A stretch of DNA of 63,853 nucleotides, counting the filler, from Reclinomonas americana ATCC 50394 (Eukaryota), in NCBI GenBank assembly GCA_048213135.1. It is 6 parts of 2 records of this genome, joined end to end, with 100 filler letters (N's around TTAATTAATTAA, not from the genome) between each part and the next. Parts side by side here need not be neighbours in the genome. Positions count along the whole stretch, not along the records: positions 12,419 to 40,277 come from PS015339.1; 5 more parts are not named here. One strand, given 5' to 3'. The notes below the pieces were generated by a model, which worked only from the letters and a program-made list of their open reading frames with translations, was not told the DNA's origin and did no database searches. Each line of letters begins with the position of its first letter. The first letter of the stretch is position 1. The position numbers were made by a program, and so were the translations under genes. Positions 32,535-47,201 of this stretch are shown here, piece by piece.

Positions 32535-35358
32535 ATGGATCCACTACTTCAACAGCACGCACCAGCCGAGGCGACGCAGTCGACACTCATGTCGCAGATC
32601 ATCTTCGGCACCATGCTGGCCTTCTTTCTCACGGTGGCGCAGGGTGCATTCCACCGACTGCTGAACTGGCTGCTGGACATTGCACTGTTCCCGCTGCGGC
32701 GTATCGTGCGGACCTACACCTTTGATGCAGTTGCGTCGCACCGCGTACGGGCCAGGGGGGAAAGGCACTGACTCCCATGTCGGCAGGGCCACAAGCACTT
32801 CAAGACACTGCGACGCGCCGTCAAGGCACTGGTCACCGAGGCCGGTGTCAGTCGATCCACGATGCCAATGGTGATGAAACCGGCGCGTGGTGGCAAGCCG
32901 GCCCGCGTCACCATTTCCACCGAAGACAACTTCAGCAAGATGCTGTGGATCGAGGGCATGCCCGCGTGGTGCGTGAGCAACGAAGTGGCGATCACCTTGT
33001 CTCTTCTTTTTACCTTTCATTCTCCCCCCACAGGCTGACATATGACAATGGCGAGAAGGCTGGAAGTGCGGTACGACGGTGAGCAGAAGCACGCAACTCT
33101 TCTGTACTTCTTCTTGTCTTCTCACCTCTCTGGCGATGCGCAGCGTGGACGGCTCGGCGGCTCGTGTCAGTGCCAATTTCCGCCTCACAGGCGTGCTGCT
33201 CGACTTGGATCGCCTGCAGCGCTTCCTGGCCAAGCACCAGAGTCGCTCGACGTACCTCCACAGCAATCGCTCCGTGTATCCTCGCCGTGTGCCACAGGCG
33301 AATTCTGTGTACGCGCCAGAGGTGTGGGAACGCGTCTGCAATCACCTGGAGTCCTTCCTCGACTTGAATCAGACCGACAGCAAGCACACGGGCATTCTGC
33401 TGCATGGACCTCCAGGGTGAGTGTGCGAGTTGCACGAGGGAGGGGGAGATGAAAGCGAGTTGCTCACCGGCTGTATTTTCTTCGCTGCGTGCAGAACGGG
33501 CAAGACAACGGTGAGTGAAACATGCGCGCAGACTCACAGCGACAAAGGAGTACTCACTTTGTGTGCGCACAGCTCGTGTGGACGCTGAGTCACAAGTACC
33601 AGGTGCGGGAAACCACGATTCACGCACATCTCATGCCTCTTTCGCTCACCTCCGTCGCCACAGATGAACGTCATTGCACTGTCGCACTCGGCGCTCGAGT
33701 CCAGCATGACGCCGCCCGTGTGCCAGGAGGATACCATCATCCTGCTCGACGATATCGATGTGATTCTTGACAACAGGTGGGAGGAGAGAAGGGCTGAGGG
33801 GGGAAGGGGGAATGGGGGAGAGGGGGAATGGGCAAAGGGGGCAAAGGGGGCGGGAGGGAGAGAGAGAGAGAGAGAGTTGCAATTGATGGCTGTCATGTTG
33901 CTTCGCTCTCTGGTCACTCTCCATCTCACTGTCATTCTCTGCCATGATTTTCACTCTCACTCTCCACGTTCCATTCACTGTGTTCCACTTTCCATGTTGC
34001 ACTCTCCATGTTCCAATCTCTCCATGCTCCGCTCTCCGCGTTTCACTGCCTTATTCAACAATCCATGCTTCATTCTCCATATTCCACTCTGCTTGTCTCC
34101 ACTCTGCTTGTCTCCGCTCTGCGTGTCTCCGTTCTGCGTGTCTCCACTCTGCGTGTCTCCACTCTGCGTGTCTCCGCTCTGCACGTCTCCACTCTGCTTG
34201 TCTCCACTCTGCTTGTCTCCACTCTGCTTGTCTCCACTCTGCTTGTCTCCACTCTGCTTGTCTCCACTCTGCTTGTCTCCACTCTGCTTGTCTCCACTCT
34301 GCTTGTCTCCACTCTGCTTGTCTCCACTCTGCTTGTCTCCACTCTGCGTGTCTCCACTCTGCGTGTCTCTACTCTGCATGTCTCTACTCTGCATGTCTCT
34401 ACTCTGCATGTCTCTACTCTGCATGTCTCTACTCTGCATGTCTCTACTCTGCATGTCTCTACTCTGCATGTCTCTACTCTGCATGTCTCTACTCTGCATG
34501 TCTCTACTCTGCATGTCTCTACTCAGCATGTCTCCACTCTGCGTGTCTCCACTCTGCGTGTCTTCACTGTGCTTGTCTCCACTCTGCTTGTCTCCACTCT
34601 GCTTGCATCGAGCACTGCTCATTTCTCCACGCTTCCTCCAATCCCTCCTTTCCCCCTCCCTCTTTTTCCCCTCTTCATATCTCCCCCTCCTCTCCCTTTC
34701 CCTTTATCCCCCTTCCCCCTACTCTTCCCCTGCATCTCCCTTCTCACATCGCTTCTCCTCCTCTCCGCGCAGCAAAATCGTGCACAGCGTGCAACAAATC
34801 CTGGAGGAAGACCATCCGGGCAAGATCGTGTACATCCTCACCACCAACTACCGCGACAAGTTGCCGCCGGCACTGCGCCGCCGCGGCCGTGTCGATCTGG
34901 AGGTGGAGATTCCGCTGATGAGTCTCCCCGAGGCCACCGCCCTGGTGGCCCGGCACTTTGCCGATCCCGGCGACGCGCAGCAAGTGCTGGCCAAGCTCAA
35001 GCCGCACCTTCCACTGGCGCCGTGTGTGGTGCGCTCGATTCTCCTGCGGCGCGGCGGTCTGCACGAGGTGCTGCGTGAGCTGTCGGGCGATCTGTCCGAC
35101 GAGAAGAAGCTGTACACGTCGTGGATCAAGGCCACCAATCCGGAACCGGTGCTCGTCACACACGACAGCGGAAGCAGCAGCGCGAGCGCAAGTGAGGGAA
35201 GCGTGAGTAGCGACGACGACGACGAGGAAGATGAGAAGGAGGAGGACGTGGCTGCGGAGGTGGTGGTGGTGGCGGAGGTCGAGAGTGGCAAGCCGCACAT
35301 CAATGTGCGCCGGCGCGTCAAGACGACGAGCGCCGTCCCAGTTGAGCAGAGTGTGTAA
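32535..35358 (+). CDS. BCS1-like AAA+ ATPase with N-terminal TM segment
   Basis: Walker A GILLHGPPG/TGKTT (spliced), Walker B IILLDDID, second-region ILTTNYRDKLPPALRRRGRVD. Confidence 0.88.
34083..34605 (+). repeat. Intronic 15-bp minisatellite (about 35 units)
   Basis: Blocks of tctccactctgcttg, tctccactctgcgtg and tctctactctgcatg. Confidence 0.95.
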
Positions 35359-35661: not shown

Positions 35662-38600
35662 TCATCGTGTTCCAAGATCGTCGCGAACAAATGCCAACAC
35701 TGCAGAACAATAACATGAATCAGCATGATCCACACACTCACTGTCGAAGCACACTAATACCTTGCATCAACAGGAACGACGGAGACCAAACGGGCGCCAG
35801 CTTGTCATAGTTGAGCCACAGGCGCGTGTCAGCGTCAATGGAGGGATGATCGAGATCGGAAACGACGCGAATGAGCGGCGGCGACCAAGGATAGTCGTCG
35901 GAGAGCACCATTCGTATCTCCTCCGTGTGGTCATCGAGCTACATCCGATAGTACGGAAGGAGAGTGAGCAAAGGGTACAGATGGAAGCACACATCACCTA
36001 AAGGTGTACCTCCATGCGACCCGCCACGCAGCGAGGGTTGGTGGGCAGAATCTCCAGCCGCAAGCCATCAGTGTCACCGACGGAGGGCCACGCGCGACTC
36101 TCTTGCGCCATTCGCGCGGCAAGGGCGGCCGGTGGTTGGGCGCTGGCGTCGCTCAGCGAGTCGTAGACAGCCAGGAGTTGCTGCGGGGAGGCGCCTGCAA
36201 AAGAGACGGGTGGGCAAGAGAGGGGGAGAAGCGGGAAGGGAGAGGGGGAGAGCGGAAGGGAGAGGGGACAGCAGCGAGAGGAGGAGGAGCGAGAAAAGGA
36301 GAGAGCGAGAGGAGCAGAACAGCAAGAGGGGGAGAGAGCGAGAGGAGCACAGCAGCGAGAGGCGGAGCAGCGAGAGCAGGAGCAGCGAGAGCAGGAGCAG
36401 CGAGAGCAGGAGCAGCGAGAGGAGCGGAACAGCGAGAGGAGAGAGCAGCGAGAGGAGCAGAACAGCGAGAGGAGAGAGCAGCGAGAGGAGCAGAACAGCG
36501 AGAGGAGAGAGCAGCGAGAGGGAGCAGCGAGACGACGAGCAGAGAGAGGAGAAAGCAGCGAGAGGAAGAGGAGCGAGAGGGGGAGAAGCGAGAGGGAGGA
36601 GNNNNNNNNNNNNNNNNNNNNNNNNNNNNNNNNNNNNNNNNNNNNNNNNNNNNNNNNNNNNNNNNNNNNNNNNNNNNNNNNNNNNNNNNNNNNNNNNNNN
36701 NNNNNNNNNNNNNNNNNNNNNNNNNNNNNNNNNNNNNNNNNNNNNNNNNNNNNNNNNNNNNNNNNNNNNNNNNNNNNNNNNNNNNNNNNNNNNNNNNNNN
36801 NNNNNNNNNNNNNNNNNNNNNNNNNNNNNNNNNNNNNNNNNNNNNNNNNNNNNNNNNNNNNNNNNNNNNNNNNNNNNNNNNNNNNNNNNNNNNNNNNNNN
36901 NNNNNNNNNNNNNNNNNNNNNNNNNNNNNNNNNNNNNNNNNNNNNNNNNNNNNNNNNNNNNNNNNNNNNNNNNNNNNNNNNNNNNNNNNNNNNNNNNNNN
37001 NNNNNNNNNNNNNNNNNNNNNNNNNNNNNNNNGAGAGCTAACCCGTGTGTTTTCGCTCTTTCCCACTATTTGTCCTTTCATCTTCCTTCTCCCGTTTCCA
37101 CCTCACTCCCTTCTCCCATTCCACACCTGGCTCCACAAGGGGTGGCGGTCTTCGCACAACAATCATCAGTGGCTCATCCTCGTAGCTCCCAATCGCGTAG
37201 TCGCGCAGAGTCTTGCCGTCGGCCAGCCAGTGCTCGCGAAAGCGAATACGCATGCGGTCGCGCAGCTCGCCAAACTGCATCGCAGACTGTCAACACAAGA
37301 CAGTGGCGCTGGAGAATAACATTCTCCCTCTCCCACCTGCATCTCCAACAAGTACTTGAACTCGTCCACCGTGAGACTGGCGAAAGACCACACGCGGCAG
37401 TAGCCGTGGTCGCCGAGGCCCGTGACCAGCACCTGTACGGGACCGTCGTAGATGGTGACTCGTGGCAGCGAGGCTTGGAGCGCGGCAACCAGGTGACGAT
37501 GCTGGCCGAGTTCGAGGGTTTGTCGGATGGAGATGGACTGCAGCAGAGGGCACTGTGCAAAATTTGTGGTCAGAGAAACGCAACAAAACAGACAACTCGA
37601 TGTGTGCGCACCTGTGCCGCCGCCTGCACGATGCCATCGAGGGACAGATTCGGGCCGCTGCATCCGTCCAGCACCACGTGACGCACAGTATCTGTTATGC
37701 ACACACGACTGTTGAGTGGAAGCAAGCGATACATGAATTCCGTTTCAGCTCGTCGTCACCTTGGCAGTGCTGCACGCGAGGGGAGAATGAGCAACACACA
37801 AACACACAGGGGAATATGCAAACACCGAGGAAGGGTCACGCACGAATAATATCTGTCGAAGTGCGGCGTCGGGCAGCCGAAACATGCAACGCTCGGGGAC
37901 ACCTGTGCAAAAGTCAAGCGTGCTGCGCAGTCGGAGCACGCGATTGACACGCTGCGCACGACATTGGAAGCATGGAAATGGGCGACGGTACATCACAAAA
38001 AACAGACAGTGTCAGCTCACCACTCGCAGCCGACCGCACACAGAACTTAGTTTGACCACGCACGGCGTGCTCAAGTATGAGAGCATGTGCACAAAGGCGT
38101 ATTCGCAGAGGCCCCTGGTGGGAGTGGGCAGTGAGTGGAGAGAACAGAAGCAAAGGAAGGAAATGAGCGCACCACAGTGTGGCCTCCTCTTGCCGCGCGT
38201 CGACCTCACGTAATCTCAACACGGGGGAGGGAGCGTCGCGGAACTTGATCAGATGTACTGAATGGGGACAAGGGGAAGTGAGGACAAGGGGCAGCGAGGA
38301 CAAGGGGCAGCGAGGACAAGGGGCAGTGAGGACAAGGGGAAGGGACGACAGGGACAGGAATGAGAAGAACAAGAAGAATTCAGAGAAACGGACAGGGGAG
38401 AGATAGTGAGGAACGGAGAGCACCAATATAAGAAGGGAACGACGAATCAGCGAGGCGAGCAGCAAGCAAAGGAAGACAAGACAAGCAGGAAGAAGAGCGA
38501 CAGAAGAAAAGGAAAGGAACGCAGCAAGAGATGAAGAGAACAAGCGAAGAGAAGCGAGCAATGAGAGTGGACAGGACGAAGATGAGTAAGAGAGCAGACC

Positions 38601-40111
38601 GCAGGAAAGGACCACAAGAACAGGATACATCATCGATTCGTCACATCAAGCTCACCTTCCATTGGCGTCTTGCGCTCGAAAAACATGTGCAGCGTCGCAC
38701 AGAAGCCACTGCGCAATGGCAGCGGTCTGTGTCGTACATCTCCGAGCTGCATGATGGAAGAAGAGACAAGCTGTGGTTGAGACACAGCAAGACCTTTCCT
38801 CTTTCTCTTCCCCGTTCCCCTCCCTTCTCTCCTCCTCCCCACGCAACATGGGCCACCGCCAAATGCGGCACATGCGCATACACATGACTGCCGCGAACCG
38901 ACAAATCGTCGTCGCCCGTGTGGCCCATCACAATCGGGCGACAAAACTCGACGCCGCCCGCTGTCTCGTCGCGAAACGAGCCACCGAGGCACACGCACAC
39001 CGTCACCAACGAGTCGTCGGCCGTGAAAACACCGCACGGAGGCGCCTCCGCACTGGGCGAGTCGCGAAACGTGTCGTCCCACTGCGCCCGACGCCAGCGA
39101 ATGACAGCGCGCATGGTGATCTCATTGGCGCCGCCAAAGAGCTCGCGTCGCGGCCGCGCCAAATGCTGCACGACCGGGAACAGGTGCGTGCACAGCTCGT
39201 CGAAGAACGAAGGAGGAAAGGCGAGGTCTTGCGCGAGGTCGATCTCGGAGCCTGCGAGAAGGGGATGAGCAGAGAGAGAGAGAGAGGGAAGGAGATTCTC
39301 GCCGGAGCTGGAGCCGCAACTTGCAGGCAACCCGTGCGCCAGGTAATTCTCCAGTTCCTCCATCAGCGCCTCGCAAAAGTCCGCGCTGAAGGGGGTGAGG
39401 TTGAAGACGTACGGATCGGCGCCGGCCATCACGGGGGAGAGGACCACGGGGGTTTTGCCGGACTGCAGGAGAAGGGAGGGAGAAGGGAGAGGGAAGGGTA
39501 AGCTTCAACTGCTTCCTTGCTCGACAGCTCTCTGTGTCTTGTGTGTGCGTGCTGGCGTGTGTATGCTGTGTCTCCGCTGGTGATGTGCGAGCTTCGATTG
39601 TCTCTTTTTCTGGTGTGCGTTGCTGCCATTGTGGAGTGCTGCGCATTGCCCGGCCTGCAGTCTATGTCTGTCTCGTTCTCTGTCTCTCTCTTTCTAGGTC
39701 AGTTTGAGTCTCCATCTTTGCTGCTTCAGCTCTCAGCAAGCTCTCTCTTTGTTTGCCAGACTGCAAGTCTCTTCTCTGCTCTCTGTGCTCTCTCTTTCTC
39801 TCAGTCTGCCTCCGCACTCAGCCTGAGTCTGTCTCGTTCTCTCTCTCTCTCTCTCATTTGCTCAGTGGGTAACGAGCTTCCTCACTCAGTCTGAGTGTGT
39901 CTTTGTCACTATCATTGCTGCTTCAGCTCCCAGCAAGCCTCTTCTCTCATTCTTTGCCAGACTGCAAGTCTTCTCTCTCTGCTCCTTCTTCATTTCATCT
40001 CTCTCTCTCTCTCTCTCTCTCTGTGCATCACTCACCGAGGTCCGATCCACATATCGCCAGTCGACAAAGCGCGTGGCGCGCGGTTGCAGCTGCACATCGC
40101 GACGCACAGGC
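35662..40111 (-). CDS. Multidomain protein: degenerate 2OG-Fe(II) oxygenase - F-box - LRR - ubiquitin-like - inactive E2 (UEV); 5' incomplete
   Basis: Phase-consistent exon chain: PFSADFCEALMEELE / ADDSLVTVCVCLGGSF..GGVEF / LGDVRHRPLPLRSG; LWGLCEYAFVHMLSYLSTPCVVKLSSVCGRLR; LRQILFHCQDTVRHVVLDGC..CPLLQSISI; TVDEFKYLLEMQ..LADGKTLRDYAI; DDYPWSPPLIRVVSDLDHPSIDADTRLWLNY..WSPSF. Confidence 0.78.
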
Positions 40112-40224
40112 CTACACAAAGAGAGAGAGAGAGAAGAGTGTGTGTGAGAGAGAGAAGGAGAGAGAGAAGAGTGAGAGAGAAGAGAGTGAAGGACAGACAG
40201 AATGTGAGCGAAACAGTGAAAGAA

Positions 40225-40261
<37 letters not shown>

Positions 40262-40746
40262 GAGAGAGAGGAGGACGNNNNNNNNNNNNNNNNNNNNNNN
40301 NNNNNNNNNNNNNNNNNNNNNTTAATTAATTAANNNNNNNNNNNNNNNNNNNNNNNNNNNNNNNNNNNNNNNNNNNNGAGAGAGAGAGAGAGAGGAGGAG
40401 GGGAGGAGGATGGAGAGGGAGAGGAAGGGAGACAGAGAACGCGTGTGATCGACCGCGTGTTCTGCGTGCGTGTGAATGCAGTCCTTGTGTTGGAGGACGA
40501 TTGATTGCTCCGTTGTCGAAGTTCGTGAAGGGTTTGTGGTCAACCTGGACCTCCTAGCGTGCACTCAGAACGTGTGCTTCGCCCTGCACACCTCGACTTA
40601 ACAGAGGTCCACCCCAGTTGCACGACTATTCATACATTACGAGACTACCAGAAGGCTTCGTGAGACGCAACACGACAAGCAACAAGAGAACACAGAAGAA
40701 AACACAACATCCTCTCAACACATGTGTCCATTCCTTTTCCCCACAA

Positions 40747-41832
40747 TCACAGGCTGTCGTTCGTGAAGCACCGATGCACGACGACCTCTGCCTCCTCCAC
40801 CACAAAACAGCGCATTACAATCTCCACCAAACAGCGCGGATCTGGATCGTCTTCCCCTTCACCCTCAACCTGCATCTCCTGCACTGCTTGCATCGCCGAC
40901 TGTGCGCATTCGAGCTCCTGTCGAGCGAGGCCGTAAGGTGTGGACCACACGCGCACTGCGTTGTCCTGGCTTCCACTCACGATGTGTTACCCATCTGGGG
41001 AGACGGCGACAGAGTTCACTTGCCCAGTGTGCCCTACCAACCGCCACACTTCCTCGCCACTCGCCATTAACCAGATGCGCACTGTGTTGTCCCAGCTGCC
41101 ACTCACAACGTGGCGACCATCGGGAGTGACGGTGACAGACGTAACCGCGCGCGTGTGCCCCATGATTTGTCGCACTTCCTCGCCGCTCTCCACGCACCAT
41201 ACTAGAACCGTCTTATCCCAGCTCCCGCTCACCACGTACCGTCCGTCAGGAGTGACTGCGACAGAGGTCACAGTTCCCGAGTGTCGGTCCCACCGTTGCA
41301 GTTGTTCTCCACTCGCCAGTGACCACACGCACACTGTCTTGTCCGCACTGCCGCTGACAACGCGCTGCCCGTCGGGGGTGACGGCGACAGAGTACACGGC
41401 AAGAGTGTGCCCCTCCAGCCGTTGCACTGTCTCGCCACTCGCCAGCGACCACACTCGCACAGGCATGTCACTGCTCCCACTCACAATGAACTGTCCGTCG
41501 GGAGTGACCGCAACACACAGCACTGCCGCGGTGTGTCCCTTCAACTGCTGTACTTCCTCTCCGCTCGCCAGCGACCACACACGCACAGTACCATCAGCCG
41601 CTCCACTCACAATGTGCACACTGTCTGGAGTGACGGCGACCGCATTCAACCAAATTGTGTGTCCCCGCAAGTGCAGCACTTGCTCTCCACTCGCCACAGA
41701 CCACACTCGCACGATGTGGTCAGCACTACCAGTCACCACATGCTGACCAGTGGGAGTGACTGCGACGGAATAGACGGTGTCGGGGTGTCCATGCAGGCAC
41801 CGAGAAGGGAGAGATGGACTAGCAACGGACAT
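40747..41832 (-). pseudogene. WD40-array copy A with in-frame nonsense codon in blade 7
   Basis: TAA at 40987-40989 where paralogues have Gln (DGQHIVSGS); the frame continues intact to the conserved tail. Confidence 0.8.
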
Positions 41833-42990
41833 GAAGTGTGAGTGTNNNNNNNNNNNNNNNNNNNNNNNNNNNNNNNNNNNNNNNNNNNNNNNNNNNNNNN
41901 NNNNNNNNNNNNNNNNNNNNNNNNNNNNNNNNNNNNNNNNNNNNNNNNNNNNNNNNNNNNNNNNNNNNNNNNNNNNNNNNNNNNNNNNNNNNNNNNNNNN
42001 NNNNNNNNNNNNNNNNNNNNNNNNNNNNNNNNNNNNNNNNNNNNNNNNNNNNNNNNNNNNNNNNNNNNNNNNNNNNNNNNNNNNNNNNNNNNNNNNNNNN
42101 NNNNNNNNNNNNNNNNNNNNNNNNNNNNNNNNNNNNNNNNNNNNNNNNNNNNNNNNNNNNNNNNNNNNNNNNNNNNNNNNNNNNNNNNNNNNNNNNNNNN
42201 NNNNNNNNNNNNNNNNNNNNNNNNNNNNNNNNNNNNNNNNNNNNNNNNNNNNNNNNNNNNNNNNNNNNNNNNNNNNNNNNNNNNNNNNNNNNNNNNNNNN
42301 NNNNNNNNNNNNNNNNNNNNNNNNNNNNNNNNNNNNNNNNNNNNNNNNNNNNNNNNNNNNNNNNNNNNNNNNNNNNNNNNNNNNNNNNNNNNNNNNNNGA
42401 GAGAGAGAGAGAGAGGGTGAGGGAGAAGAAGAAGGAAAGGGAGAAGGGAGAGGAAGGGAGAGGATGGAGAGGGAGAGAGAGAAGAAGAAGGAGAGGGAGA
42501 GGATGGAGAGGGAGAGGAAGGGAGACAGAGAACGCGCGTGCTCGATCGCGTGTTCTGCGTACTTGCGTGTGAATGCAGCGTCCTTGTGTTGGAGGACGAT
42601 TGATTGCTCCGTGGTCGAAGTTTGTTACACGAAGGAGTTTGTGGTCAATCTCAACTCCGTAGCGTGCACCCAGAACGTGTGCTTTGCCCTGCACACCTCG
42701 ACTCAACAGAGGTCCACCCCAGCTGCACGATTCGACGTATTCGTACACTTCATTCGCCACATTCGTCCACAAATCCCTTGCCAACAATGACCAACCTTGG
42801 CACACCAGCAAGTATGCGAAACTCACAATTCCTCTTCTCCAACAATTATCTTCCCTTTCAGGAGGCAACGTCAAACGAGGACACATACATGTATGGTACT
42901 GGGGGACTGCTGGAAGGTACCAAGCGCGACAGAAAGGGACAAGAAATCACAACATCCTCTCAACCCTTATCCCTCGCCTTCTCCTCAAAG

Positions 42991-44085
42991 TCACAGACGA
43001 TGGCTGCCGTCCGGAAAGTATCGATGCACGATGACCTCAGCCTCCTCGACCATGAAACAACGCAGCACGATCTCCACCAAACAGCGCGGATCTGGATCGG
43101 CTTCCCTTTCACCCTCCTCTCGCTGCAGATCCTGCACTGCTTGCATGGCCGACTGCGCGCATCTGACCTCCTGTTGCGCGAGGCCGTAAGGTGTGGACCA
43201 CACGCGCACAGTCTTATCCACAGATCCGCTCACGATGTGCTGACCGTCGGGAGAGACGACGACAGCGAACAGGCTTCTAGTGTGCCCCTCCAGCCGCCGC
43301 ACTTCCTCGCCACTCGCCATGGACCACACTCGCACTGTCGCGTCCCAACCACCACTCACAACGTGTTGGCCATCTGGTGTGACAGCAACAGAGTTTATCG
43401 ACGCAGAGCGCACATCCAGCCGTCGCAATTCCTCTCCACTTGCCAGCGACCACACCCGTATCGTTCTGTCATTGCTCCCACTCACCACGTGCTGGCTGTC
43501 GAGAGTGACGGCGACACAAATCACCAGTCCAGTGTGTCCCTCCATTCGGAGAACTTCATCTCCAGTCGCCAGAGACCACACCCGCACTGCCATGTCACCG
43601 CTCCCGCTGACGATGTAGTGACCATCAGAAGTGACAGTGACAGAGTACACCACGCCAGTGTGTCCCTCAAACCGCCGCACCTCTTCCCCACTCGCCAGAG
43701 ACCACACACGCACCGTCTGATCATGGCTCCCGCTCACTACGTGCTGGCTGTCGGGGGAGATAGCGACAGACATCACCCAGCCAGTGTGCCCTCTCAGCCG
43801 CCGCAACTGTTGCCCACTTGCCAGCGACCACACTCGCACAGTTCGGTCACGACTCCCGCTCACCACGTGCAGGCCATCGGGAGTAACAGCAACAGAGAAC
43901 ACCAACCCCTTGTGTCGTTGCGAGTGCTGTACCTGTTCTCCACTCGCCAGCGACCATACGCGCACAATCGCGTCGTCGCCCGCACTGACAACATGTTGGC
44001 CGTCCACAGTGACAGCGACGGAGTGGATGGCGCTGGTGTGCCCGCAAAGGCATCGGTAGGGGAGATATTGAGGCGCCAGGGACAT
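42991..44085 (-). CDS. Intronless 7-blade WD40 protein with conserved tail (copy B)
   Basis: MSLAPQYLPYRCLCGH..., seven repeats, tail STPYGLAQQEVRCAQSAM...RCLVEIVLRCFMVEEA. Confidence 0.92.
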   Translation of the reverse strand: MSLAPQYLPYRCLCGHTSAIHSVAVTVDGQHVVSAGDDAIVRVWSLASGEQVQHSQRHKGLVFSVAVTPDGLHVVSGSRDRTVRVWSLASGQQLRRLRGHTGWVMSVAISPDSQHVVSGSHDQTVRVWSLASGEEVRRFEGHTGVVYSVTVTSDGHYIVSGSGDMAVRVWSLATGDEVLRMEGHTGLVICVAVTLDSQHVVSGSNDRTIRVWSLASGEELRRLDVRSASINSVAVTPDGQHVVSGGWDATVRVWSMASGEEVRRLEGHTRSLFAVVVSPDGQHIVSGSVDKTVRVWSTPYGLAQQEVRCAQSAMQAVQDLQREEGEREADPDPRCLVEIVLRCFMVEEAEVIVHRYFPDGSHRL

Positions 44086-44390
44086 GTTGCGTGTGTGTGG
44101 AGCAGAGGGAGGGAGACAGAGAGATTGTGTTCTCAGGATGTTCGAGTGTATAGTGTAAACACGGTCCTGCTCCATTGTCGAAGTTCCTTGCATGAAGTGG
44201 TTTGAGCACCCTCAACTCCTAGCGTACGCCCAGAAACATGTACTATGCCCTGCGCACTTCGACTCAACGAAGGTCCACCCCAGCTGCACGAATCGACGTA
44301 TTCATGCATTACGAGTCATCACAACAGAAAAAGACAAATAAAACACAACATCCTCAACTCTCATCCCTCTCCTTCCTCAAAAAGTCACAG

Positions 44391-45476
44391 CTAGAAGTAG
44401 CCGTTTGCAAAGCATCGATGCACAACAACCGCGGCCTCCTCGACCATGAAACAACGCAGCACGATCTCTGCGAGGCAGCGCAAATCGCGTTTCTCCTCCA
44501 CTTCTTCTTCCTCCCGACGCTCCTCTCGCTGCATCTCCTGCACCGCGCGCATCGCCGATCGCGCGCAGTCGAGCTCCTGTTGCGCGAGTCCACATGGTGT
44601 GGACCACAGTCGCACTGTCTTATCCACAGATCCGCTCACGATGTGCTGCCCATTGGGAGAGACAACGACAGAGTTCACTTGCCCCTCCAACCGCCGCACT
44701 TCCTCCCCACTCGCCACGGACCACACTCGCACGCTCTTGTCCCAACTGCCACTCACGATGTGCTGGCCATCTGGGGTGACGGCGACAGAGGACAAAGAGC
44801 GCACCTCCAGCCGTTGCAATTCCTCTCCACTCGCCAGTGACCACACCCGTACCGTGCCGTCATTGCCCCCACTCACCACGTGCTGGTTATCGAGAGTGAC
44901 GGCAACACGAATCACCAATCCAGTGTGTCCCTCCAGCCGTCGCACCTCTGCGCCACACTCCAGCGACCACACCCGCACTGTCTTGTCTCCACTCCCACTG
45001 ACGATGAACAGACCATCGCGCGTGACGGACACAGCGTACACCACACTAGTGTGTCCCTCCAACCGCCGCACCTCTGCGCCACTCGCCAGAGACCACACAC
45101 GCACCGTCTGCTCATGACCTCCACTCACCACGTGCTGGCTGTCGGGAGTCACCGCGACAGAATACACCGTGTGTGCATGTCCCCTCATTTGGTGCACCTC
45201 CACCCCACTTGCCAGTGACCACACTCGCACCGTCTGGTCATAACTCCCACTCACCACGTGCTGGCTGTCGGGAGTGACAGCAAGAGAGGATATCGCTTCC
45301 GTGTGTCCCTGCATCTGTTGCACCTCCTCGCCACTGGCCAGCGACCATACGCGCACAATCGAGTCATCGCCCGCACTGATGATGTGCAGGCTGTCGGCGG
45401 TGACAGCGACTCTTTCCACGGAGTGGGTGAGTACGCACAGGCATCGGGAAGGGAGAGATGGAGGCGCAGCGGACAT
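44391..45476 (-). CDS. Intronless 7-blade WD40 protein with conserved tail (copy C)
   Basis: MSAAPPSLPSRCLC..., seven repeats with small deletions in blades 6-7, tail RCLAEIVLRCFMVEEA. Confidence 0.9.
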   Translation of the reverse strand: MSAAPPSLPSRCLCVLTHSVERVAVTADSLHIISAGDDSIVRVWSLASGEEVQQMQGHTEAISSLAVTPDSQHVVSGSYDQTVRVWSLASGVEVHQMRGHAHTVYSVAVTPDSQHVVSGGHEQTVRVWSLASGAEVRRLEGHTSVVYAVSVTRDGLFIVSGSGDKTVRVWSLECGAEVRRLEGHTGLVIRVAVTLDNQHVVSGGNDGTVRVWSLASGEELQRLEVRSLSSVAVTPDGQHIVSGSWDKSVRVWSVASGEEVRRLEGQVNSVVVSPNGQHIVSGSVDKTVRLWSTPCGLAQQELDCARSAMRAVQEMQREERREEEEVEEKRDLRCLAEIVLRCFMVEEAAVVVHRCFANGYF

Positions 45477-45847
45477 GAGGTGTGTGTGAGAGAGAGAGAG
45501 AAGGGGGAGAAGAAGAAGGAGAAGGGAGGGAGTCGTGTGTGTGCTTGATCGAGTGTTTCTGCGCGTGTTCGCCGCGAGGACAAGATTGTTCGGTTGTCGA
45601 AGTTTGTTACATGAAGGGGGTTTTTGAGCAACCTCGACCTCCCAGCGTGCACCCAGAACGTGTGCTTTACCCTGCACACCTCGACTCAACAGAGGCTCAC
45701 CCCAGTTGCACGACTCGACGTATTCATACATTACGAGACGTACCAGAAGGCTTCCTGATCAGGAGAAGCAACACGACAAGCAACAAGAGAACACAGAAGA
45801 AAACACAACATCCTCTCAACACATGTGTCCATTCCTTTCCCCCACAA

Positions 45848-46933
45848 TCACAGGCTGTCGGTCGTGAAACACCGATAGACAATGACCTGTGCCTCCTCCA
45901 CCACAAAACAGCGCAACACAATCTCCACCAAACAGCGCGGATCCGGGTCGTCTTCCCCTTCCCCCTCGATAGGCATCTCCTGCACTACTTGCAGGGCCGA
46001 CTGTGCGTATTCGAGCTCCTGTCGAGCCAATCCACACGATGTGGACCACAGTCGCACGGCCTTGTCCTGGCTTCCACTCACAATGTATTGACCGTCGGGG
46101 GAGACGGCGACAGAGTTCACTTGCCCAGTGTTCCCGTCCAACCGCCGCACTTCCTCGCCACTCGCCATGAACCAGATGCGAACTGTGTTGTCCCAGCTGC
46201 CACTCACAACGTGGCGACCATCGGGAGTGACGGTGACAGACGTAACCACGCGTGTGTGCCCCTCTAATCGTCGCAATTCCTCGCCGCTCTCCACGCACCA
46301 TACTAGAACCGTTTTATCCCAGCTCCCGCTCACCACGTACCGTCCGTCAGGAGTGACTGCGACAGAGGTCACAGTTCCCGAGTGTCGGTCCCACCGTCGC
46401 AGTTGTTCTCCACTCGCCAGGGACCACACGCACACTGTCTTGTCCCCACTCCCGCTGACAACATGCTGACCGTCGGGGGTGACGGCGACAGAGTACACGG
46501 CGCGAGTGTGCCCCTCCAGCCATTGCACTGTCTCGCCGCTCGCCAGCGACCACACTCGCACACGCACGTCATCGCTCCCACTCACAATGAACTGTCCGTC
46601 GGGAGTGACCGCAACACACAGCACTGCCGCGGTGTGTCCCTTTAACTGCTGTACTTCCTCTCCGCTCGCCAGCGACCACACACGCACAGTACCATCAGCC
46701 GCTCCACTCACAATGTGCTCACCGTTGGGAGTGACGGCGACTGCATTCAACCAACTTGTGTGTCCCTGCAAGTGCAGCACCTGCTCTCCACTCGCCACAG
46801 ACCACACTCGCACGCTGCTGTCAGCACTACCAGTCACCACATGCTGACCAGTGGGAGTGACTGCGACGGAATAGACGGTGTCGGGGTGTCCATGCAGGCA
46901 TCGAGAAGGGAGAGATGGACGTGCAACGGACAT
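45848..46933 (-). CDS. Intronless 7-blade WD40 protein with conserved tail (copy D)
   Basis: MSVARPSLPSRCLHGHPDTVYS...; close paralogue of copy A. Confidence 0.92.
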   Translation of the reverse strand: MSVARPSLPSRCLHGHPDTVYSVAVTPTGQHVVTGSADSSVRVWSVASGEQVLHLQGHTSWLNAVAVTPNGEHIVSGAADGTVRVWSLASGEEVQQLKGHTAAVLCVAVTPDGQFIVSGSDDVRVRVWSLASGETVQWLEGHTRAVYSVAVTPDGQHVVSGSGDKTVCVWSLASGEQLRRWDRHSGTVTSVAVTPDGRYVVSGSWDKTVLVWCVESGEELRRLEGHTRVVTSVTVTPDGRHVVSGSWDNTVRIWFMASGEEVRRLDGNTGQVNSVAVSPDGQYIVSGSQDKAVRLWSTSCGLARQELEYAQSALQVVQEMPIEGEGEDDPDPRCLVEIVLRCFVVEEAQVIVYRCFTTDSL

Positions 46934-47201
46934 GAAGTGCGTGAGAGAGAGAGAGGGTGAGGGAGAGGATGGAGAGGGAGAGGAAGGGAGACAGCGTGTG
47001 CTCGATCGCGTGTTCTGCGAACTTGCGTGTGAATGCAGCGTCCTCATGTTGGAGGACGATTGATTGCTCCGAAGCTCGTGAAGGGTTTGTGGTCAACCTG
47101 GNNNNNNNNNNNNNNNNNNNNNNNNNNNNNNNNNNNNNNNNNNNNTTAATTAATTAANNNNNNNNNNNNNNNNNNNNNNNNNNNNNNNNNNNNNNNNNNN
47201 N

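Follow-up and report, generated by a model that had tools for sequence, protein, structure and literature searches.

A putative F-box protein gene of Reclinomonas americana with OGFOD2-like, ubiquitin-like and E2-variant parts

Results

An intron-rich gene encoding parts of the ubiquitin system

We analysed a 63,853-nucleotide stretch of the genome of Reclinomonas americana ATCC 50394 (assembly GCA_048213135.1), which consists of six parts of two records joined end to end and is referred to here as the window. Judged from its sequence, the minus strand between positions 40111 and 35662 is a real, intron-rich protein-coding gene, whose product would be an FBXL-class F-box protein with an OGFOD2-like fold at its N-terminus, an internal F-box, a set of about three short repeats that contain Cys, a ubiquitin-like domain (Ubl), and a C-terminal ubiquitin E2-variant domain (UEV). 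That all five parts form a single gene, with 617 codons or more and its 5′ end missing, we hold to be an evenly balanced proposition; the fusion of the oxygenase-like part to the F-box part is likely, and the fusion of the Ubl to the UEV is moderately favoured. The original prediction had placed these five domains in this order in a single product, and we recovered each domain type at least weakly and in that order, but all of the Pfam scores fell below their cut-offs. The base composition of the window (GC content of 0.58), its 24 N gaps, and its short introns with GT..AG borders are those of a eukaryotic, protist-type assembly.

The exon chain was rebuilt from the sequence and comprises 14 exons with a joined length of 1854 nt and no internal stops, so that the spliced product has 617 codons followed by a TGA stop at 35664-35662. 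All 13 introns have GT..AG borders, and the frame stays open without any frameshift or stop being passed over. The earlier claim of about 14 minus-strand exons with mutually consistent phases is thus borne out, and the positions proposed for the individual domains agree with the rebuilt exon borders. Ten of the introns are 58-101 nt long, while the three long ones measure 573, 398, and 932 nt, the last of these including a gap of 431 N. For exon 3, a donor at 38843 was rejected as it breaks the frame, which is restored by the donor GTTGCG after 38848.

A chain of exons that avoids stops proves little, and we therefore scored codon usage independently, using a codon table trained solely on the WD40 and AAA genes nearby and skipping stop codons in the scoring. 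The frame of the model outscored the other two in 10 of 12 exons (binomial P = 5e-4), with exons 4 and 7 ambiguous, while intron sequences gave negative scores in all frames, intron 4 among them. Since the test favours the model frame and the introns score negatively, we take the exons to be coding. The individual scores include those of the first recognised exon (exon 1r, 40111/40110-40036, with an acceptor, tgtag, at 40112; 0.12 versus -0.25 and -0.21 in the other frames), of exon 5 (0.12 versus -0.66 and -0.09), and of exon 9, whose value of 0.49 is the best of all exons. Exon 1r had no match in Pfam.

The C-terminal E2-variant domain

The profile work was carried out on contiguous single-exon translations (11 pieces) rather than on the spliced product, and it is mainly for this reason that Pfam scores lie below the curated cut-offs and that domain borders are left loose. 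The clearest domain is the last one, which is encoded by exons 12 to 14. Exon 13 (35938-35761) holds the core of the UBC fold; in a search of the PDB its best match was UBE2T (E = 2.6e-6), and 240 distinct E2 sequences were matched at E ≤ 1, while the Pfam profile UQ_con (PF00179) matched at E = 3.4e-5 with 23.9 bits (cut-off 27), half of the domain having been scanned. Active E2 enzymes carry their catalytic Cys after a His-Pro-Asn motif. In the alignment with UBE2T, the column of the catalytic Cys is occupied by Trp ('rlwl' against 'RICL', within 'TRLWLN'), and the preceding motif reads His-Pro-Ser, for which reasons we class the domain as UEV-type rather than as an E2, in agreement with the UEV of the original prediction. 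Exon 12 (36194-36010) would encode a linker and, presumably, the N-terminal half of the fold. A complex prediction in which the products of exons 12 and 13 were treated as two halves of one fold was uninformative (score of 0.00). Exon 14 (35699-35662) contributes the final 12 codons and the TGA, and the model consequently ends 16 residues past the aligned UBC core, without the C-terminal helices, which are likewise lacking in Mms2/Uev1. We therefore state with good confidence, on the strength of these alignments, that an E2-variant domain is present which is shortened, devoid of the Cys, and predicted to be unable to form a thioester.

The N-terminal OGFOD2-like domain

At the other end of the chain, exon 2 (39462-39321) encodes the N-terminal part of an OGFOD2-like domain, exon 3 (39251-38848), the largest exon with 134 codons and a model frame that is best by codon score, its presumed core, and exon 4 (38746-38656) presumably the last strands of the fold. 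Exon 2 matched the OGFOD2-like family PF25238 at E = 4.7e-4 with 20.6 bits (cut-off 31) over positions 37-69 of the 123 in the profile, and a 205-residue read-through of exon 2, the following intron, and exon 3 matched it with 17.1 bits against the same cut-off; it is the only profile match of the N-terminal part. When the same read-through was placed among Atlas clusters by protein-language-model features, its neighbours were clusters of OGFOD2-like and 2-oxoglutarate oxygenases (top value 0.94, recognition 2697), and all of the ten best named neighbours belonged to the OGFOD2-like family or its clan. We assign an OGFOD2-like identity to this part with moderate confidence. The JmjC domain, by comparison, gave no match in any exon piece (Pfam, E ≤ 1) or in the read-through (E ≤ 10).

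At the place expected for the His-x-Asp iron motif, exon 3 carries 'FTADD', as read by eye and not from an alignment. By what we take to be the motif spacing of the family, the first iron-binding His is here replaced by Thr, and the Arg that binds 2-oxoglutarate is not evident by eye; for these reasons the domain may be inactive.

Other searches with this part of the gene were uninformative. The best PDB match of exon 3 was to OTU1 at E = 0.29, the exon pieces had no match in PHROGs or NCBIfam, and a single-sequence AlphaFold2 model of the 205-residue read-through had a mean predicted local distance difference test score of 34.6 and was unusable. In a metagenome scan with exon 3, one locus out of 163 pattern matches passed tblastn and was rejected as a chance match; its frame (3969-4160, plus strand) lies opposite a 543-codon GroEL-like open reading frame (ORF) on a contig that looks bacterial by eye. 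The one phage record found by tblastn (E = 5), a tail tube gene, was also rejected.

The F-box, the repeats, and the ubiquitin-like domain

Between these two domains, exon 5 (38257-38173) encodes a linker and exon 6 (38114-38021) an F-box-like motif, whose end lies in exon 7 (37951-37844). Exon 6 matched the F-box-like profile PF12937 at E = 0.038 with 14.2 bits (cut-off 24.3) over positions 10-32 of 47, and it had no match in the PDB. The F-box consensus has Leu-Pro-x-Glu at a site which in exon 6, by eye, reads Leu-Cys-Glu-Tyr. We regard the match as a weak but specific indication of an F-box.

Leucine-rich repeats were recognised by pattern only. A Cys-containing leucine-rich pattern runs through exons 7-9 and the N-terminal half of exon 10, with a first unit in exon 7, a second in exon 9 (37691-37612), and a last in exon 10 (37552-37337), which is an unbroken frame of 72 codons. 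Exons 7, 9, and 10 had no match in Pfam; the Atlas neighbours of exon 10 were LRR_6, LRR_FBXL15, and FBXL17 clusters at 0.81-0.83, with a recognition value of 1917 that is under the mark of 2300.

The second half of the Ubl would be encoded by exon 11 (37274-37127), of which residues 6-39 align with ubiquitin 39-70 in the PDB search. The E-values were 0.25-0.67 for single ubiquitin, 0.064 for UBL4A, and about 5e-4 for di-ubiquitin, values for polyubiquitin being inflated by its repeats; exon 11 had no match in Pfam. This register places the start of the β-grasp fold about 38 residues earlier, in exon 10 and directly after the last repeat-like unit, so that the end of the repeats and the start of the Ubl would share one uninterrupted exon. 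The ubiquitin-like identity of exon 11 is thus suggested by weak but specific similarity, and the domain would have the length of ubiquitin if the register holds. It ends in '...VVRRPPP' inside exon 11, where the frame continues without a C-terminal Gly-Gly, and a built-in Ubl of this kind would be non-conjugatable.

One gene or several

Three lines of evidence, namely splice phase, the distribution of ATG codons, and the style of the introns, are the only ones on which the reading as a single gene is built, and a number of observations weigh against it; these are given here together with the alternatives that we considered.

First, the locus may hold two genes, one with the oxygenase-like part, F-box, repeats, and Ubl that ends at 37038 or in the N gap, and the other a small gene for the UEV, with its start at ATG 36111 or inside the gap. 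The two would be separated by what is modelled as intron 11 (37126-36195), which is 932 nt long as assembled, has a purine-rich 5′ end and a CT-rich 3′ end, and could instead mark the boundary between genes or a wrong join in the scaffold. Within it, a 15-nt minisatellite (36270-36601) runs into the 431-N gap (36602-37032), which may conceal exons, the border of a gene, or a wrong join, and a scaffold error is possible at such a site. If the donor of exon 11 (GTGTGG) is left unused, the frame stops at 37038 after 29 codons. The first ATG of exon 12, at 36111, is in frame and has A at -3 and G at +4, which is a good start context, so that a separate UEV gene of 105 codons is possible; small UEV proteins that stand alone, such as Mms2/Uev1, exist. 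However, exons 11 and 12 have compatible splice phases, the acceptor of exon 12 is strong, and the 27 codons of exon 12 that precede its first ATG score best in the frame of the model (-0.15 versus -0.52 and -0.61). A start at 36111 would also leave the E2 fold with a shortened first helix, to judge from the positions in the UBE2T alignment. In addition, the frame that reads through the exon 11 donor has a poor codon score (-0.25), and the sequence past this donor is purine-rich like the starts of other long introns: intron 11 resembles the 996-nt intron of the neighbouring AAA gene in its purine-rich start (0.85 versus 0.90), its pyrimidine-rich end, and its 15-nt minisatellite. We consider a division into two genes at this point unlikely.

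Second, the oxygenase-like part may be a gene of its own, or the 3′ end of a gene with 5′ exons beyond the contig join, that ends at 38630 and is followed by an F-box gene. Here the boundary would fall in what is modelled as intron 4 (38655-38258), a CT-rich segment of 398 nt with a 16-nt minisatellite at 38266-38350. The frame stops at 38630, eight codons past the donor of exon 4, if this donor is unused; the fold ends there as well, and it would be nothing unusual for an oxygenase domain to lie at a C-terminus. Exon 1r, moreover, has an upstream acceptor and no ATG. The WD40 genes upstream on the same strand seem to be some 200-300 nt apart, although their starts are unverified, and the 398 nt could therefore be intergenic. 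Against this separation, the phases across intron 4 fit and both its donor (GTGAGC) and its acceptor (...CATTCAG) are good, and the distribution of ATG codons between exon 4 and the F-box leaves a separate F-box gene without a sensible start. The only ATGs in intron 4 are at 38646, 38633, and 38630, of which the last two overlap the putative stop and open a 125-codon frame that is rich in Leu, Ser, and Pro and has negative codon scores, the remaining one stopping at once. No ATG at all occurs on the minus strand from 38627 to 38087, so that exon 5 is free of them in any frame, and the next one, at 38086, is the sole ATG of exon 6 and lies within the F-box match. As 38086 corresponds to about position 12 of the 47 in the profile, a start there would truncate the beginning of the F-box. 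A separate oxygenase gene is accordingly quite improbable in our view, and we prefer to join exon 4 to exon 5.

Lastly, the exon chain could reflect a pseudogene in decay or a manual model fitted too closely to GC-rich DNA, since chains of GT..AG introns that avoid stops can always be picked. The lack of relatives points in this direction: exon 3, which is larger than any other exon, is an orphan with no relative at E ≤ 0.001 among 1.84 billion representatives, and word-indexed searches with exon 3, exon 13, and the read-through of exons 2-3 (E ≤ 1) likewise returned none. Weighing against the single-gene model more generally, only 3 of the 11 exon pieces matched a Pfam profile at E ≤ 1, eight had no such match, and no match reached its curated cut-off. 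Exon 12 on its own had no UBC match in Pfam or the PDB, where its best row was an uninformative flavin reductase at E = 0.19. Exon 10 matched neither ubiquitin nor a leucine-rich repeat in the PDB; its best row was a repeat lectin at E = 2.3e-4, a value summed over seven weak stretches of which the best single one had E = 4.7. The model itself has loose ends. No start codon was found for it, the exon at 40111 being without an in-frame ATG. The 10-nt micro-exon 8 (37769-37760), which the original prediction had included as encoding His-Cys-Gln, does fit the open frame, but so do two donors inside exon 7 (after 37903 and after 37891), and it is not the sole solution. Skipping it or retaining intron 7 creates four internal stops, and an exon of this size is credible here because the neighbouring AAA gene needs a 16-nt micro-exon for its Walker A motif. 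Given that the codon-frame test is independent of stops and favours the model in 10 of 12 exons, that three different profiles of the ubiquitin system or of oxygenases match in the frame chosen and follow one another sensibly, and that the frame stays open without correction, the absence of a functional gene is very improbable.

The gene is incomplete at its 5′ end. Upstream of exon 1r there is a CT/GA-rich tract and then the contig join at 40278-40377. An ATG at 40097 was rejected as the start, as it does not share the frame of exon 2; the frame that it opens (40036-40097, minus strand) stops after 31 codons when spliced to exon 2, and would be an upstream ORF if it is part of the transcript.

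Genomic neighbourhood

A gene for an AAA-type ATPase (33300-35358, plus strand) converges on the 3′ end of the F-box gene model. For its Walker A motif (GPPGTGKT) to arise, a 16-nt exon at 33495-33510 has to be spliced in, and a 996-nt intron (33777-34772), which holds about 35 copies of a 15-nt minisatellite, splits the AAA domain downstream of Walker A and B. The exon after this intron matched positions 99-131 of the 131 in PF00004 with 22.6 bits (cut-off 21.2), while Pfam scans of 33589-33840 and 34897-35355 gave nothing useful. Minisatellites with a period of 15-16 are thus found in long introns of both genes (36270-36601, 38266-38350, and 34083-34605), and as one of them abuts the 431-N gap, they may explain the break in the assembly there.

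On the other side, the minus strand at 40747-47092 carries a tandem array of at least four near-identical and apparently intron-free WD40-repeat genes; a profile scan of one gave WD40 at E = 1.5e-70. A CT-rich tract lies ahead of every copy and the same C-terminal tail comes after it, and the distance from one stop to the next ATG seems to be only about 200-300 nt. Five sites in the window (12319-12418, 40278-40377, 47102-47201, 52909-53008, and 59275-59374) each consist of two runs of 44 N that flank 12 bases; at 40322-40333 these bases read TTAATTAATTAA, which gives stops in all six frames. The sites look like artificial contig joins, and adjacency across them is therefore not assured. The segment at 40378-40600 (minus strand), just upstream of the join next to the F-box gene model, resembles the segment that precedes each gene of the WD40 array, and the contig on that side consequently seems to end in a WD40 repeat unit and not in the 5′ region of the F-box gene.

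Discussion

The original prediction held that no protein with this architecture had been described. This stands for the full set of five domains, for which our literature searches found no described protein, but not for pairs of the domains, which are already in print. Close to the C-terminal half is Morgue of Drosophila, which combines an F-box and a UEV in one protein and, according to the part of the source on which we draw, binds SkpA and K48 chains (PMC3787007). Compared by domains, Morgue and the model share an F-box and a C-terminal, Cys-less E2-variant domain; as far as that account goes, Morgue has a zinc finger and a Gly at the active site, whereas the model has Trp at this position, no zinc finger that we could see, and in addition the repeats, the Ubl, and the oxygenase-like domain.

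For the N-terminal half, comparable arrangements occur in KDM2A and KDM2B (FBXL10), which share one arrangement. In KDM2B, as outlined in the material consulted, a JmjC oxygenase is N-terminal to an internal F-box that is followed by leucine-rich repeats (PMC13591259), which is the order of a 2-oxoglutarate oxygenase, F-box, and repeats in the model. KDM2B is there given a JmjC domain, a CxxC domain, and a PHD domain but no Ubl or UEV, whereas the oxygenase of the model is OGFOD2-like and possibly inactive. In protists, the F-box protein JcdI/Fbxo13 carries a JmjC dioxygenase and is described in the portion of the source used here as conserved across this range of organisms (PMC9485057). Together with JcdH, found in Dictyostelium and other protists, it resembles the model as a protist F-box protein with a non-haem dioxygenase, and Jcd proteins bind Skp1 (PMC9485057). 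In JcdI and JcdH, however, the F-box lies at the N-terminus, the enzyme is a JmjC domain of the JmjD6 type, and the sections in question describe no repeats, Ubl, or UEV tail. Our model has no JmjC match and is in this respect distinct from proteins of the KDM2 and JcdI types. A Ubl and an F-box are joined in FBXO7 (PMC3814724), in which the Ubl is N-terminal, while that of the model is internal; no oxygenase or UEV is listed for FBXO7 in the excerpt available. The OGFOD2-like oxygenases (PF25238), finally, provide the model's only N-terminal profile match and its nearest Atlas clusters, though the model scores below their cut-off, its core exon 3 has no detectable relative, and its iron ligands were read by eye only.

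The F-box would dock the protein on Skp1 and a cullin, while the repeats and the oxygenase-like domain may recognise a small ligand or pick out a target. By analogy with Morgue, the UEV tail might hold ubiquitin or ubiquitin chains. The Ubl could contact the proteasome, as has been proposed for other adaptors that carry a Ubl, or could be bound by the UEV and serve as a lock within the molecule. We reasonably infer from the predicted domains a receptor of a Skp1-cullin-F-box (SCF) ligase with its own ubiquitin mimic, a UEV, and an oxygenase fold that senses a ligand. More tentatively, and with some doubt on our part, oxygenases of the OGFOD2 type may have been wired repeatedly to F-box, leucine-rich-repeat, and Ubl modules in distant protists, in which case the orphan OGFOD2 family would act on or with SCF ligases; here a UEV would be added, and one polypeptide would combine docking on Skp1, the reading of ubiquitin chains, and a Ubl handle of its own.

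Should the parts belong to separate genes, the locus would be an ordinary cluster of small genes of the ubiquitin system, and its interest would lie mainly in the quality of gene models in an intron-rich and repeat-rich genome. If the single-gene reading is true, the product would be a new variant of the multi-domain F-box protein and not a new kind of system, the pairwise combinations being known. As one protein, the five parts would make up an unusually self-contained ubiquitin-ligase adaptor with a module for a target or ligand, an anchor to Skp1, a ubiquitin reader, and a Ubl handle, and this would provide a functional lead for the uncharacterised OGFOD2 family of oxygenases, which includes a human enzyme.

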